Shown here piece by piece: positions 43,095 to 62,224 of a stretch of 64,000 bases of DNA (position 1 is its first letter; each line of letters opens with the position of its first letter). The notes below the pieces were generated by a model. It was not told where the DNA came from. It worked only from the letters and a program-made list of their open reading frames with translations, and ran no database searches. A program made the translations under genes and the position numbers. Source of the stretch: a virus; the IMG/VR virus record IMGVR_UViG_3300029288_006769, positions 122,367-186,366 of that record; one strand, given 5' to 3'.

Positions 43095-43166
43095 CTGGGG
43101 TAGAAGGATTTGCACCTCCGACACCCGGCTCCAAGGGCCAGCGTTCTTCTACTGAACTATACCCCA
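43095..43166 (-). tRNA. tRNA-Gln (anticodon read as UUG; loop CCUUGGA)
   Basis: cloverleaf read by eye: U1:A72 acceptor TGGGGTA/TACCCCA, T-loop, anticodon stem CTGGC/GCCGG. Confidence 0.6.
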
Positions 43167-43180
43167 ATAAATTTCAAACT

Positions 43181-43254
43181 AGCCACAAAGAGACTTGAAC
43201 TCTTAACCTACAGTTTAGGAAACTGTGACTCTATCCAATTGAGCTATGTGGCTA
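43181..43254 (-). tRNA. tRNA-Arg(CCU)
   Basis: acceptor AGCCACA/TGTGGCT, anticodon arm ACAGT-TTCCTAA-ACTGT. Confidence 0.7.
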
Positions 43255-43258
43255 AAAA

Positions 43259-43335
43259 TGGTCGGAACGAGCAGAGTTGAACTGCTGACCCCCTGCACCC
43301 CATGCAGGTGCGCTACCAGGCTGCGCCACGTTCCG
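43259..43335 (-). tRNA. tRNA-Pro(GGG)
   Basis: CGGAACG...GGCGCAGCCTGGTAGCGC D-arm, loop AUGGGGU, encoded CCA. Confidence 0.7.
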
Positions 43336-43353
43336 TTGTTCAAAGAACTTAAA

Positions 43354-43428
43354 TCGGAGTGAGTGGATTTGAACCACCGGCCTTGTGATCCCGGATCACA
43401 CGTTCTAACCAGGCTGAACTACACTCCG
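43354..43428 (-). tRNA. tRNA-Pro(CGG)
   Basis: acceptor CGGAGTG/CACTCCG, anticodon arm TGTGA-TCCGGGA-TCACA. Confidence 0.65.
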
Positions 43429-43432
43429 TATT

Positions 43433-43507
43433 CTGGGGTGAGAAGACTTGAACTTCTAACTTCTGGTTTCAGAGACCAGCGTTCTAAACCAATTGAACTA
43501 CACCCCA
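43433..43507 (-). tRNA. tRNA-Gln(CUG)
   Basis: acceptor TGGGGTG/CACCCCA, anticodon arm CTGGT-CTCTGAA-ACCAG. Confidence 0.7.
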
Positions 43508-43513
43508 ATAAAA

Positions 43514-43591
43514 TGGTCGGGATGAGAGGATTTGAACCTCCGACACCTGCGTCCCAGGCGCAGTGCTCTAACCAGACTGAGCTACATCCCG
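43514..43591 (-). tRNA. tRNA-Pro(UGG)
   Basis: acceptor CGGGATG/CATCCCG, arm CTGCG-CCTGGGA-CGCAG, encoded CCA. Confidence 0.7.
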
Positions 43592-43609
43592 TAATTCAAA
43601 GAACTCTAA

Positions 43610-43645
43610 ACAAAACGGCCCCTCTTTTTTGGAGAGGAGCCGTTT
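43610..43645. terminator. GC-rich hairpin flanked by T/A runs (bidirectional terminator-like)
   Basis: AAACGGCCCCTCT-TTTTTGG-AGAGGAGCCGTTT perfect 13-bp stem. Confidence 0.55.
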
Positions 43646-43788
43646 GAAATTTCGTTTTTGTCTTTCAGTTATTTCAACAGCAGCCCTCTCCAGGTTATGT
43701 TCCTGGGTTGTTGTGGTTGCGGCTGTTGAAAAAATATTTTCATAGTTTAAATATAACATAAATTATTGCAAGTGTAAATATTTTTATG

Positions 43789-44268
43789 TCATAATACAAA
43801 AAATTCTGCATAATTGTTTTCATAAAGTCTCATATTGTCTAGAATATTTGGCTCTACTTCTAACATATTGTCTTTTCTAAGAGGATATAAAAAACAATTA
43901 TCCTCTGGGCTCGGATCCATTACGAGAATTTTGTTGTTGTTCTTTTTTATTCGTACTGCATGATTAAACCAAGGCAAAGGACTTCCATTACTTTTATGAA
44001 AAATGATGACAATAACGTCTTGATTGGGATACTTTGAGAATATTTCAAAAGTTTTGATACCTGAATCTTTGTAAATATAGAACCCGTTAAATGTTTCATT
44101 TAGAAAATCATAAGTATTAAGGAGATTAGTTGTGCCAGTTTGTTCAGCAAGCTGAATATTAATATGATATTGATATTCTAAATTTTTTATATAATAAGTG
44201 TTATATGAAATTCTTATATTTATTTTGTTTGTTTTGTTTGTGTTCAAGTTCAGCACCATGGTTGTCAT
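43789..44268 (-). CDS. hypothetical protein
   Basis: ORF. Confidence 0.3.
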   Translation of the reverse strand: MTTMVLNLNTNKTNKINIRISYNTYYIKNLEYQYHINIQLAEQTGTTNLLNTYDFLNETFNGFYIYKDSGIKTFEIFSKYPNQDVIVIIFHKSNGSPLPWFNHAVRIKKNNNKILVMDPSPEDNCFLYPLRKDNMLEVEPNILDNMRLYENNYAEFFVL

Positions 44269-44409
44269 ATAGCGTCATATATGTAGGTTCTGAAAAAGAA
44301 TGTGACATGCTTTTGAAGGAATTAGAAAAGAAAAATCAAGAATGTAGAGTGATTTGTCATGATAGTGGTGCTGTTTACGAAATCAATTATAGACCAATCA
44401 AATAGTTTT

Positions 44410-60838: not shown

Positions 60839-60910
60839 TGGGCCCGGGGAGATTTGAACTCCCGACCTACCGATTAAAAGTCGGTTATTCTACCACTGAA
60901 TTACGAGCCC
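60839..60910 (-). tRNA. tRNA-Lys(UUU)
   Basis: acceptor GGGCTCG/CGGGCCC, arm ACCGA-CTTTTAA-TCGGT. Confidence 0.7.
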
Positions 60911-60921
60911 GGCAGATTTAA

Positions 60922-61008
60922 TGGGCCCGGCAGGATTTGAACCTGCGATGGAGTTATGCACTCTCCGGATTAAAAGTCCGGTACCTTCGACCGCTAGGTG
61001 ACGAGCCC
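60922..61008 (-). tRNA. tRNA(UUU) variant with extra variable stem-loop (Lys-like acceptor, type-II-like)
   Basis: same acceptor as the adjacent tRNA-Lys; arm CCGGA-CTTTTAA-TCCGG; inserted GAGTGCATAACTC hairpin before the T-arm. Confidence 0.5.
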
Positions 61009-61072
61009 AGAATGATTTTCTTCCGTTTGTCAGATTTGTCGTCTTTATCCATTCTGGTACCCTTCACTTTCA

Positions 61073-61116
61073 TTGTCCAAGAGAGGATTTGAACCTCCAC
61101 GAGAATTACTCTCGTT
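61073..61116 (-). repeat. tRNA-Leu 3'-half remnant (variable arm + T-arm + 3' acceptor)
   Basis: about 90% identical to the 3' portion of the adjacent tRNA-Leu(GAG): CGAGAGTAATTCTCGTGGAGGTTCAAATCCTCTCTTGGACAA. Confidence 0.6.
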
Positions 61117-61131
61117 AGTCTCAGTTTATTT

Positions 61132-61214
61132 TGCCCAAGAGAGGATTTGAACCTCCACGAGATTTCTCTCGCCAGAACCTCATTCTGGTGTGTCTCCCAT
61201 TTCACCACTTGGGC
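61132..61214 (-). tRNA. tRNA-Leu(GAG), type II
   Basis: acceptor GCCCAAG/CTTGGGC, arm CCAGA-ATGAGGT-TCTGG, long variable arm. Confidence 0.7.
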
Positions 61215-61224
61215 ATATTTTAAA

Positions 61225-61301
61225 TGGCTGCGGTCGGAATTGAACCGACGACCCCTTGCTCTTCAGGCAAATGCTCTACCGTTAAACTGAGCTACACAGC
61301 C
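61225..61301 (-). tRNA. tRNA-Phe(GAA)
   Basis: acceptor GGCTGTG/CGCAGCC, arm TTTGC-CTGAAGA-GCAAG. Confidence 0.65.
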
Positions 61302-61311
61302 GTTATTTACA

Positions 61312-61386
61312 TGGGCTCAGGCAGACTTGAACTGCCAGAATCTCTCGATTAAGAGTCGAGTGCATTGCCAATTTTGCTATGAGCCC
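61312..61386 (-). tRNA. tRNA-Lys(CUU)
   Basis: acceptor GGGCTCA/TGAGCCC, arm CTCGA-CTCTTAA-TCGAG. Confidence 0.7.
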
Positions 61387-61395
61387 TAAATTAAG

Positions 61396-61481
61396 TGAGT
61401 CGGGAGGGAGTTGAACCCCCAATGTTTCTTAAGACAAGTTTTACAGACTTGCGCCACACAACCGATAGTAGCCTCCGACTC
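61396..61481 (-). tRNA. tRNA-Tyr(GUA), type II
   Basis: acceptor GAGTCGG/CCGACTC, arm CAAGT-CTGTAAA-ACTTG, long variable arm. Confidence 0.6.
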
Positions 61482-62085
61482 AATAATAATAAAAATCTCT
61501 CCAATTTGTAAAAGTTTTATCAATCGTTTTTGTTCTTAAAAAATCTGCATTTATTTTCTTTTCTCTATGAATTTCTCTGTGACAATTTGGACAAACTACA
61601 ATTAAATTTTCATGACTATCAGTTCCACCTAATTTCTTATGAACAATATGATGAATATCACAAGAACTTTTATTCCACCCACATAATACGCATGCAAATC
61701 TCGCTCTTCGTAAAATTAATGCTGTTGTTTTCTTTGAAAGTTGCAATATACTTGCAACATTTCGTTTTCCCCTTTTGAACTTTTTTCTACATTTTTTACA
61801 TTGTATTTTTCTACCAAATCTTAAGTATTCAACAAAAGAATCACCACATAATTCGCAAACATGTGTCTTATCTTTTATTTTGCAATCTTTACAAAGATTT
61901 GAACCTTGTATTTTCTTCCCGCATCTAATGCAGAACTTAAGTTTATTTTTAAGCGTAAAACTTACTTGTTTGTTTATAGCATTTCTTTTTGAAAAAGTAG
62001 AAAAACCCCTTACGCATTTTAAACTACAAAATCTTCCACTTCCAATTTTGCCATCATGTTCTGCACCACATTTTTCACATTTCAT
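61480..62085 (-). CDS. HNH endonuclease with multiple zinc ribbons
   Basis: CDIHHIVHKKLGGTDSHENLIVVCPNCHREIH plus many CxxC pairs. Confidence 0.8.
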   Translation of the reverse strand: MKCEKCGAEHDGKIGSGRFCSLKCVRGFSTFSKRNAINKQVSFTLKNKLKFCIRCGKKIQGSNLCKDCKIKDKTHVCELCGDSFVEYLRFGRKIQCKKCRKKFKRGKRNVASILQLSKKTTALILRRARFACVLCGWNKSSCDIHHIVHKKLGGTDSHENLIVVCPNCHREIHREKKINADFLRTKTIDKTFTNWRDFYYY

Positions 62086-62144
62086 TTTGAACCTCCTTAA
62101 ATCAACGTGTTCAATAAATACATTGATAAAGAAAGTTCAAATTA

Positions 62145-62224
62145 TGGGTTGGTAGACCAGATTTGAACTGGCGATCTTCAGAGTCACGATCTGATGTTTT
62201 AGACCAGGCTAAACTACTACCAAC
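62145..62224 (-). tRNA. tRNA-His(GUG) with encoded G-1 and CCA
   Basis: G-1 preceding TTGGTAG, C73 discriminator, arm TCAGA-TCGTGAC-TCTGA. Confidence 0.65.

Follow-up and report, generated by a model that had tools for sequence, protein, structure and literature searches.

The 64,000-nucleotide (nt) stretch of IMG/VR record IMGVR_UViG_3300029288_006769 analysed here (the window, in which position 1 is the first letter, and to which all coordinates refer) carries an island of two tRNA gene arrays, in which ARAGORN calls exactly 25 tRNA genes, all of them on the minus strand between 43094 and 62223, with none elsewhere in the window. A compact array packs six genes into 43094-43591 with spacers of 3-18 nt, a scattered array spreads 19 genes over 50767-62223, and both arrays are co-oriented with the neighbouring genes. 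The original prediction, made by reading the letters, had proposed 25 minus-strand tRNAs in two arrays; its boundaries are right, and its anticodon list agrees one for one with that of ARAGORN. The number of tRNA genes adds nothing new, and the value of the island lies rather in the unusual contents of the array, which include a long-arm tRNA with the anticodon UUU, a run of tRNAs with cytidine at position 33 (C33) and a circularly permuted tRNA-like RNA. None of these three, nor the homing-endonuclease genes interspersed among the tRNAs, was recognised in the original prediction.

The genes were scored with Rfam model RF00005, which has a gathering score of 29 bits and reaches 20 of the 25 tRNAs under default filters and 23 under permissive ones, all 23 passing at 43.5-74.4 bits. 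In ascending coordinates, the compact array comprises tRNA-Gln(UUG) (43094..43167; 55.3 bits; loop CCUUGGA with C33), Arg(CCU) (43179..43254; 65.2 bits), Pro(GGG) (43259..43335; 56.0 bits), Pro(CGG) (43354..43428; 61.0 bits; C33), Gln(CUG) (43432..43508; 69.6 bits) and Pro(UGG) (43514..43591; 63.7 bits; C33), the last being the first gene in the direction of reading. The scattered array begins at its low end with Leu(UAA) (50767..50851; 46.0 bits), an initiator-like tRNA-Met (52359..52432; 55.8 bits), Ser(CGA) (54797..54882), Cys(GCA) (55672..55746; 55.7 bits), Thr(CGU) (56268..56340; 66.2 bits) and Ser(UGA) (56347..56431; 57.9 bits), followed by a second tRNA with the anticodon CAU (56652..56726; 69.2 bits; loop AUCAUAA), Leu(CAA) (57468..57553; 43.5 bits), Leu(UAG) (58015..58099; 48.1 bits), Ser(GCU) (58632..58715; 53.6 bits), Trp(CCA) (59495..59568; 69.6 bits) and Val(UAC) (60546..60619; 64.4 bits). 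Its upper end is occupied by a canonical 72-nt Lys(UUU) (60839..60910; 74.4 bits), the 89-nt long-arm (type II) tRNA with anticodon UUU (60921..61009; 61.6 bits), Leu(GAG) (61131..61215; 50.7 bits), Phe(GAA) (61225..61301; 62.8 bits), Lys(CUU) (61312..61386; 62.1 bits), an atypical Tyr(GUA) (61395..61481) and His(GUG) (62145..62223; 57.6 bits; C33, with an encoded G-1 opposite C73).

The two genes that fall outside RF00005 match the tRNA-Sec model only: Ser(CGA), with 31.1 bits, has an atypical D arm and is kept in four phages, and Tyr(GUA), with 24.4 bits, has a 13-nt variable region without a stem. The full 3' CCA is encoded by five genes (Pro(GGG), Pro(UGG), Ser(UGA), Leu(UAG) and His), and the other 20 tRNAs would need a CCA-adding enzyme. 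The isoacceptor sets for Pro (UGG, CGG, GGG) and Leu (UAA, CAA, UAG, GAG) are full, as had been claimed, and read every Pro and Leu codon by wobble. The claim that there is no suppressor tRNA also stands, because CUA, UUA and UCA anticodons are absent from the 25 tRNAs called by ARAGORN, the open reading frames (ORFs) are long when read with the standard bacterial code, and stops of all three kinds are in use. An alternative genetic code was rejected likewise, as table 11 gives long, dense ORFs with all three stops in use (TGA 45, TAA 29, TAG 8). Contigs of other samples match the window at 100% identity over the overlap and reach ~8 kb past its end, where there is no further tRNA; His is therefore the first gene of the array, and Gln(UUG) its last.

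The window has a guanine plus cytosine (G+C) content of 34.5% and nearly all of its genes lie on the minus strand, among them those for DNA polymerase III alpha, a glutamine-dependent NAD synthetase (NadE), ThyX, an RmlD-like reductase, an AAA ATPase, the Ogg and UDG glycosylases, a ParB-like protein, a PP2C phosphatase and a kinase-like protein. A metagenome contig of 422,226 bp encodes an identical copy of the protein of 62505-63140, and the RNA ligase of the island is also recorded on a contig of 0.2-1 Mb, which supports the earlier view of a huge phage, as do Pol III alpha, NadE and ThyX; judged from these shared sequences, the carrier of the island is a phage of at least 422 kb. A megablast search of the 19-kb region against 50,697 deposited phage records returned no near DNA relative, only chance matches to tRNA-Pro. 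In huge phages the number of tRNAs rises with genome size, up to 67 per genome (PMC7162821), and the clusters of huge and jumbo phages (PMC7162821; T5, KVP40, XacN1 and mycobacteriophage cluster C1) likewise hold tens of clustered, co-oriented tRNA genes that differ from the host's own, with genes of RNA repair or modification close by. No essential difference separates the island from these clusters, 25 genes in 19 kb being inside the known range. The tRNA genes are thus real and ordinary in count for a huge phage, and the island, as such, is a further case of the known phage tRNA gene cluster.

Related contigs were fetched using the RNA ligase and the methyltransferase of the island as queries, and three related phage contigs share a syntenic core of 17-18 tRNAs. 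In L019, which, like L003, comes from a 194.6-kb IMG/VR contig, the order is His, Met, Tyr, Lys(CUU), Phe, Lys(UUU), Val, Trp, Ser(GCU), Leu(UAG), Leu(CAA), the CAU tRNA, Ser(UGA), Cys, Ser(CGA), Leu(UAA), the ligase region, Pro(UGG) and Gln(UUG); L023 has the order of L003 and L019 from Tyr on, and L021, a closer relative in which the methyltransferase is 94% identical, covers part of the array only. Seven tRNAs of the window are missing from the relatives, namely Leu(GAG), the long-arm Lys(UUU), Thr(CGU), Gln(CUG), Pro(CGG), Pro(GGG) and Arg(CCU), the last being absent from L019 and L023, and the Tyr and Ser(UGA) of the window are non-homologous to the genes in the matching slots. When the stems were compared with those of the aligned orthologues in L019, L021 and L023, and compensatory and broken pairs were counted, Lys(UUU) showed 18 compensatory changes and no broken pair, Trp eight and none, His six and none, Pro(UGG) 14 and one, and Ser(CGA) 14 and four across the four phages. 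Given that the stem differences of the orthologues are mostly compensatory, the tRNA genes are under selection, and on this comparison the tRNAs of the island are working genes and not relics.

Long-arm, C33 and CAU tRNAs

The tRNA of 60921-61009 has its UUU anticodon in a normal 7-nt loop, according to both ARAGORN and Rfam, and carries a 14-18-nt insertion in the variable region, where a 4-bp stem (GAGU/ACUC) with a 5-nt loop is accompanied by an unpaired CAUC. It has the stem-forming variable region of more than 10 nt of a type II tRNA, and the anticodon is UUU in place of the Leu, Ser, Tyr or Sec anticodon of that class. The canonical Lys(UUU) 11 nt downstream has the acceptor stem GGGCUCG/CGGGCCC and A73 in common with it, the two being otherwise 63% identical, and the long-arm gene is unchanged in L016, a contig of an independent sample.

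This tRNA belongs to a broader class. A pattern scan of IMG/VR (CTTTTAA, a long gap, then a T arm) listed 119 matches, on the loci of which ARAGORN was then run, and at least 64 viral loci of these 119 (L027-L145) hold a complete 80-94-nt cloverleaf with the anticodon UUU. In these loci there are at least 68 long-arm UUU genes, 66 of them unique and 50 with a variable stem of 3-5 bp, most being inside tRNA arrays. Among the matches listed, the discriminator of the 68 is A in 52 and U in 14; the Ser tRNAs of the same loci are mostly G73, which the long-arm UUU tRNAs rarely are, and the closest kin of long-arm Lys tRNAs, again among the matches listed, are other long-arm Lys tRNAs. The top anticodons among further tRNAs of at least 82 nt in the same loci, excluding those for Leu, Ser and Tyr, are Asn(GUU) (9/40), Lys(CUU) (8/43) and Thr(UGU) (7/25). 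Cultured phages have such genes as well, with 88-nt Lys(UUU) and Lys(CUU) genes in the Rhodobacter phage RcXuper (L266 506-593 and 3001-3088) and an 87-nt tRNA-Asn in the phiKZ-like phage OMKO1 (L267 1493-1579). In 596 Gb of cellular genomes, the same pattern yielded only ~6 long-arm UUU tRNAs in 120 matches, all of them in multi-tRNA loci; four archaeal matches resembling a long Lys tRNA were set aside, their extra sequence looking like an intron of a tRNA-Lys gene. Long-arm tRNAs with Lys (UUU, CUU), Asn and Thr anticodons are common in phage arrays, those of cultured phages included, and rare in cellular genomes.

Allo-tRNAs are reportedly long-arm tRNAs with anticodons other than those for Leu, Ser and Tyr, which are charged according to their body and recode. 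The nematode nev-tRNAs (PMC3333845) are similar to the phage class in bearing a long variable arm on anticodons foreign to Leu, Ser and Tyr; they are, however, charged by their body with Leu or Ser and recode, whereas the phage class has mostly A73 (52/68 among the matches listed). Given the predominance of A73, the rarity of G73 and the acceptor stem held in common with the neighbouring Lys tRNA, charging with Lys is more likely than recoding for the long-arm UUU tRNA, and the widespread long-arm class may be charged through anticodon and discriminator, with a body that tRNA-targeting nucleases do not recognise.

Two further observations concern the arm. In L021 (1505-1581) and L023 (2802-2878), the tRNA-Leu(UAG) has just 77 nt, without the long variable arm typical of Leu, which is the converse of the long-arm Lys. 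Among other viral arrays, L352 (1326-1413 and 1620-1710) and L377 (1716-1801) contain between them an 88-nt tRNA called as Phe(AAA), a member of the permuted RNA family with a UCA loop, and a CUA (amber-reading) tRNA.

The second peculiarity is in the anticodon loop. Uridine at position 33 (U33) is near-universal in tRNAs. In the window, C33 is found in four (His, Pro(UGG), Pro(CGG) and Gln(UUG)), and it is found again in four tRNAs of the relatives (L019 19679-19757; L021 1505-1581, 3237-3311 and 5357-5429), that of Pro(UGG) being common to the window and L019. The lineage has C33 in 8/65 tRNAs as against 15/821 in other viral arrays, and any nucleotide other than U33 in 8/65 as against 19/821 (Fisher p=4e-4, the eight being not fully independent). 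No description of a long-arm phage tRNA-Lys or of C33 in phage tRNAs was found in the open-access literature, with earlier accounts possible elsewhere, so that neither the long-arm Lys class nor the enrichment of C33 seems to have been remarked on in the literature searched.

Of the two CAU tRNAs, the one at 52359-52432 had been described as of the initiator type. Two of the three hallmarks bear this out, namely the U1.U72 mismatch and the three G:C pairs (GGG/CCC) of the anticodon stem beside the loop CUCAUAA; the third does not, as U11:A24 is read in the D stem instead of A11:U24. Its counterpart in L019 shares the acceptor sequence and has not kept GGG/CCC. The second CAU tRNA (56652-56726) has A32 in its loop AUCAUAA, which is common to L019 and L023, the counterpart in L021 keeping A32 with C33 (ACCAUAA). 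Its nearest annotated phage tRNAs are mixed, with Ile(GAU) at 86% over 58 nt, Met at 83% over 64 nt, and also Arg. A TilS gene was not found among the window ORFs scanned; the island has no other Ile decoder, and AUA accounts for 488 of the 1456 Ile codons in the window. This second tRNA would be either an elongator Met or an Ile2.

A permuted tRNA-like RNA within the scattered array

Between Leu(CAA) and the next ORF lies an ORF-free stretch with 76-87% identity to the relatives, in which a circularly permuted tRNA-like RNA of 185 nt is encoded on the minus strand (57264..57448). ARAGORN and Rfam do not call it. Read 5' to 3', it opens with the 5' strands of two closing helices, which are followed by a T arm (CUUGG UUCAAAU CCAAG) and the acceptor 3' strand with A73, and then by a hairpin extension, the acceptor 5' strand, U-A and a D stem of 3 bp whose loop has GG, after which come a 5-bp stem with a 7-nt anticodon-like loop (CUCAAGA) and the 3' strands of the closing helices. 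Taken as a circle, the arms are ordered as in a tRNA, with the opening at the variable arm and the acceptor closed, and the D stem and loop resemble those of the long-arm tRNAs.

The element is present twice in tandem in L019 (7625-7797 and 7820-7992) and L023 (3250-3422 and 3515-3686) and once in L021 (2540-2714). A covariance model built on six copies, R1, has one match in the window, with 182 bits, and finds distant members in L272 (8577-8747 with 154 bits, and a second copy at 8926-9069 with 92), L378 (6651-6815; 98 bits), L274 (8009-8167; 78 bits), L109 (6803-6949; 51 bits), L352 (50 bits), L310 (49 bits) and L377 (40 bits). These members, the folds of which were checked, sit in the tRNA arrays of unrelated viral contigs, and the known copies are always inside phage tRNA arrays. 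Weak matches that span only model positions 41-133, such as L288, were discarded as junctions of tandem tRNA genes.

In an alignment of ten copies, which was fitted to model R1 and hence somewhat favours structure, 98.4% of the cells are paired and compensatory changes occur in 37/48 pairs (RNAalifold and pair counts); none of 500 shuffles reaches the observed values, and slid controls are 30-43% paired. The acceptor helix covaries in 14/17 of its pairs. The anticodon-like hairpin, with its 5-bp stem and 7-nt loop after the D arm, is found in most of the ten copies (the loop of the second L023 copy has 6 nt), and the triplet in the place of the anticodon is CAA in the window, UAG in three lineages, and CAU, AUU, ACG and UAU in others. 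The acceptor end is variable, being a 7-bp helix capped by a 3-4-nt loop in L109 (GAAA), in the second copy of L272 (CGAG) and in L377 (AUU), followed by A-CCA after the 3' strand in L274 and L378, and continued as a 17-bp helix in the lineage of the window. The structure itself is, from these covariations, well supported.

The closest parallels are the YrlA Y RNAs (PMC4201824; bioRxiv 10.1101/312249), which also have a T arm, a closed acceptor-like hairpin and a D arm, together with a long end-pairing helix and an acceptor length that varies among members. The phage element differs from them in keeping an anticodon-like hairpin, in having its terminal helix at the position of the variable arm, and in sitting in a tRNA array. 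Rfam returned no match to it, even at E<=10 in a 261-nt search, which includes the YrlA family RF02553; YrlA RNAs lie within ~4 kb of a gene for the Ro60/TROVE domain, and none was found in the ORFs scanned, including those around 57264-57448. With no match to the family model, no nearby Ro60 gene and an anticodon hairpin present, three tested features of YrlA fail. Neither a VWA protein (18445-19335) nor its neighbour, considered as a Ro60 partner, resembles the structures of Ro60. Among known RNAs, the permuted RNA nonetheless comes closest to the tRNA-like domain of YrlA.

To our knowledge, the bulge-helix-bulge splicing endonuclease is not known in bacteria. This bears on the other parallel, the permuted tRNA genes known from Cyanidioschyzon and from certain archaea (PMC3978253), in which the 3' half (T arm and acceptor 3' strand) likewise precedes the 5' half; those genes mature through that enzyme, and several phage members, unlike them, cannot give a CCA end. 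It would nevertheless be conceivable that 57264-57448 is such a gene, with RNase P and 3' trimming opening the acceptor hairpin, and that the product is a two-piece or ligated long-arm tRNA (Leu-like, with the anticodon CAA), possibly made by means of the phage RNA ligase. The circular order with all arms, the U8-A9, the GG of the D loop, the UUCRA T loop and A73 would all fit, as would anticodon-like loops mostly with U33 and a purine at 37, the A-CCA that follows the acceptor 3' strand in two distant members, and a ligase gene conserved nearby; precedents are the algal and archaeal permuted genes and the RNase P cleavage and CCA addition on the YrlA of M. smegmatis (bioRxiv 10.1101/312249). 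The members with a 3-4-nt acceptor cap, however, would be unchargeable, because there is no room for a discriminator and CCA, the 17-bp acceptor helix of the window lineage is a poor substrate for RNase P, and the loop "anticodon" changes in nearly every copy, all of which makes this origin decidedly unlikely. That the permuted elements form a real, functional RNA family that was previously undescribed is given a probability only a little short of even, no description of permuted tRNA-like RNAs in phage arrays having been found in the open-access literature, with earlier accounts possible elsewhere. It is a more speculative suggestion, and one considered unlikely, that they act as uncharged decoys, be it for anticodon nucleases or for other host factors that bind tRNAs.

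Expression signals, neighbouring genes and mobility

Both arrays open alike, with a terminator-like hairpin, the motif AGAGTTCTTTGAA and, 4-8 nt further on, the first tRNA. Upstream of tRNA-His, the hairpin has 13 bp (62261..62293, minus strand) and the motif is at 62231-62243; before Pro(UGG), the motif follows its hairpin at 43595-43607 on the same strand. In the form (AGAG)TTCTTTGAA, the motif recurs on the minus strand at 62231-62243, 43595-43607, 43339-43346, 57453-57460, 52435-52441 and 60649-60656. The core CTTTGAA is found 3-8 nt upstream of Pro(GGG), the initiator-like Met, Gln(UUG) (where it reads TTTGAA) and the permuted RNA, and at a distance of ~30 nt in the case of Val. Half of the 12 CTTTGAA sites on the minus strand, that is six, are no more than 30 nt upstream of one of the 26 RNA genes, where ~0.15 would be expected by chance on our own estimate, and the motif TTCTTTGAA is probably a promoter or a processing signal. 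A sigma-70 promoter scan was uninformative (81 sites against 66 +/- 9 expected) and was dropped in favour of the positional motif.

Between the two arrays is an RNA ligase gene (46292..47311, minus strand, like the genes that follow; PF09414, E=4e-14; phrog_548), which is syntenic in three relatives and 66% identical in L003, and which has no sequence match to any solved structure. A NUDIX hydrolase gene (48920..49369; phrog_1198, E=8e-24) adjoins the ligase in the relatives too, and the ORFs upstream of the ligase (47304-48077 and 48099-48923) have no Pfam, PHROG or solved-structure match. Inside the scattered array, 53895..54593 encodes an S-adenosylmethionine-dependent methyltransferase (PF08241, E=8e-23; 72-94% identity in the relatives), and for the ORF 58724-59419 no relative was found in viral contigs.

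At least six homing-endonuclease genes stand in or beside the arrays. They include an HNH gene (50138..50692; PF14279 and PF01844), followed by a strong terminator-like hairpin (50118-50145, terminator scan), and another between His and Tyr (61480..62085; phrog_1271, E=2e-15; PF01844 in L016), which the relatives lack. Three are of the DUF559 (Vsr-like) type: one at 52395..53327 (PF04480, E=3e-12), the last 38 nt of which overlap the 5' half of tRNA-Met, one between Val and Trp (59768..60526; PF04480, E=4e-13), and a third that is split (41880..43075, as 42701-43075 and 41880-42722; PF04480, tblastn) and is intact in L003, with 430 amino acids (aa), directly downstream of Gln(UUG). A GIY-YIG gene is split as well (45626..46295, as 46032-46295 and 45626-46054; PF19835, phrog_314), and an ORF with a weak endonuclease match (50762-51637, phrog_15427) has a 3' end that reads through Leu(UAA). 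The T4 tRNA region reportedly contains the homing endonuclease SegB, and is alike in having such genes embedded among tRNA genes, whereas the families found here are DUF559/Vsr-like, HNH and GIY-YIG.

The paralogues of DUF559 occupy different inter-tRNA slots according to the phage, the L003 copy being between Lys and Val and that of the window between Val and Trp, and the L003 array is far more compact, with Val, Trp, Ser, Leu and Leu inside 500 bp. The pair formed by a DUF559 gene and the initiator-like Met (window 52359-53327) is found again in L019 (2814-3779; 61% protein identity, tblastn), in a slot between His and Tyr instead of the slot between Ser(CGA) and Leu(UAA) of the window; given these different positions in the array, movement as a unit is suggested, that is, that the gene and the tRNA move as a cassette. 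In L019, a ~280-bp pre-array region (a small ORF and a terminator) is duplicated (2464-2800 and 5068-5348), and as its copies flank the segment of His, endonuclease and Met, it is consistent with insertion of the segment. Contigs of the same strain from other samples (99.99-100% identical) end at 62251, 60498, 53050 and 45304/45305; two of these assembly end points fall inside DUF559 paralogues, contigs of two other assemblies stop at 62251, and the island seems to be an assembly breakpoint.

Two other regions of the window may be mentioned. At 16975-20185, where local G+C rises to 0.44 against ~0.33, the plus strand has two ORFs downstream of the ThyX gene, of which one carries a NUMOD3 homing-endonuclease motif and the other a fragment of ThyX; a VWA-domain protein is encoded there too, and the region may represent a further endonuclease insertion. 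At 20199-22806, the kinase-like protein (a weak Pkinase match, below the Pfam cut-off) adjoins the PP2C phosphatase, and the two may form a phage signalling pair.

Possible functions of the island

The reading preferred here, to which roughly even chances are given, is that the island insures the tRNA pool against depletion of the host tRNAs. The phage would supply decoders of its own, in some of which the body or the anticodon loop is altered, and translation of its mRNAs would thereby continue when host tRNAs are scarce or have been cut by tRNA-targeting defences; the RNA ligase between the arrays may reseal cut tRNAs, and the unchargeable tRNA-shaped RNA may soak up tRNA-binding host factors. 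This presupposes that the genes are expressed and the tRNAs charged, that the variants resist host nucleases, and that lysyl-tRNA synthetase (LysRS), as is assumed, charges the long-arm UUU tRNA through the anticodon and A73.

Escape from tRNA-targeting defences is suggested by the presence of three Lys tRNAs, one of them long-arm, by the C33 variants, by the syntenic ligase and by the mimic with a closed acceptor, and the recurrence of long-arm UUU tRNAs in at least 64 of the 119 viral matches listed, against ~6 of 120 cellular matches, is counted in its favour. The nuclease AriB of the PARIS system targets Lys(UUU), Thr(UGU) and Asn(GUU) (PMC12409363), and Asn(GUU), Lys(CUU) and Thr(UGU) lead the other long-arm anticodons of the viral loci listed. 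Precedents are the neutralisation of PARIS and retron effectors by phage tRNAs (PMC11464382, PMC11555353) and the proposal that loop mutations serve for nuclease escape (PMC10264068). The variants of Lys, Thr and Asn by which T5 resists AriB (PMC11464382, PMC12409363) offer a parallel, in that the phage has its own Lys(UUU) copies unlike the canonical tRNA-Lys, and in that the anticodons of the long-arm class in other phages are chiefly those for Lys, Asn and Thr. The escape of T5 consists of point changes (U39A, A41C, U16C), whereas the change here is an entire additional arm, U39-C40 being retained. The repair by Rnl1 and Pnkp of the tRNA-Lys cut by PrrC in T4 (PMC10264068) is similar in that a phage Lys(UUU) tRNA goes together with a gene for an RNA ligase, and differs in the partner enzyme.

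Several points weigh against insurance of the tRNA pool. The U39-C40 at which AriB cuts in E. coli is kept in all three Lys tRNAs of the window, which are thus without the known escape change of T5. No polynucleotide kinase-phosphatase (Pnkp) was found among the window ORFs scanned, in which 10633-11595 has a weak match to a HAD phosphatase only, below the cut-off. In addition, the majority of the 25 tRNAs are canonical in appearance, relaxed constraint could account for C33, and a large and conserved set would equally be explained by codon supplementation.

This last explanation, that the tRNAs top up decoders scarce in the host for an AT-rich phage and so speed the translation of late genes, is close to what had been proposed from the letters, namely that the phage supplements host translation. 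It is a serious contender, although a doubtful one. The tRNA set is real and ten amino acids (Gln, Pro, Leu, Cys, Trp, Lys, Phe, Tyr, His and Met) are fully covered, abundant codons such as AAA, CAA, TTA, TCA and CCA are served, the core set is syntenic across the relatives, and the number of tRNAs scales with the genome size of huge phages, up to 67 (PMC7162821). Under standard wobble, however, the set reads only ~50% of the codons in the window ORFs, or ~52% if the second CAU tRNA reads AUA; Ala, Asp, Glu, Gly, Asn and the AUY codons of Ile are without any decoder, and so are the top codons of several families, AGA, ACA, GAA, GAT, AAT, ATT, GCA/GCT and GGT. Six of the seven tRNAs missing from the relatives, the seventh being the long-arm Lys(UUU), have C34 or G34, and their exact-match codons (CAG, CCG, CCC, ACG, AGG and CTC) are rare in the phage genes, with a relative synonymous codon usage (RSCU) of 0.45-0.76. 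Given this coverage, the missing decoders and the rarity of the exact-match codons, a simple match to the codon preference of the phage fits poorly, and the purpose that had been proposed is not established by the reality of the set. Supplementation would also leave the long-arm Lys, C33, the adjacent ligase and the uncharged tRNA mimic unexplained.

It may also be that the scattered array is mostly the cargo or debris of selfish homing-endonuclease traffic, in which tRNAs were carried, duplicated or replaced by recombination, with Tyr, the long-arm Lys and the C33 variants as decaying, functionless copies. The endonuclease genes in or beside the arrays (at least six), the different placement of the DUF559 and tRNA-Met pair in the window and L019, the more compact arrays of the relatives (five tRNAs inside 500 bp in L003), the non-homologous replacement of Tyr and Ser(UGA), and the breaking of other samples' assemblies inside endonuclease paralogues would all be expected from such traffic. 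The stems of the aligned orthologues are, on the other hand, kept by compensatory changes, many phages that are not related have members of the long-arm Lys class, every one of them with a full cloverleaf, four phages have kept the atypical Ser(CGA), and the C33 of Pro(UGG) is common to L019, so that decay of this kind is a very improbable account of the array.

The purpose of phage tRNAs is a 50-year-old question, which is moving from codon matching to escape from tRNA-cutting defences, and the long-arm Lys, the C33 run and the covarying permuted RNA are concrete molecules for testing that shift, long-arm tRNAs being accessible at the bench through RcXuper and OMKO1. If the long-arm tRNAs are charged and yet resistant to nucleases, or if the permuted RNA binds defence nucleases, a new principle of counter-defence would be at hand, and there would be grounds for re-annotating phage tRNA arrays, in which the permuted RNA is missed by standard tRNA finders and by Rfam.

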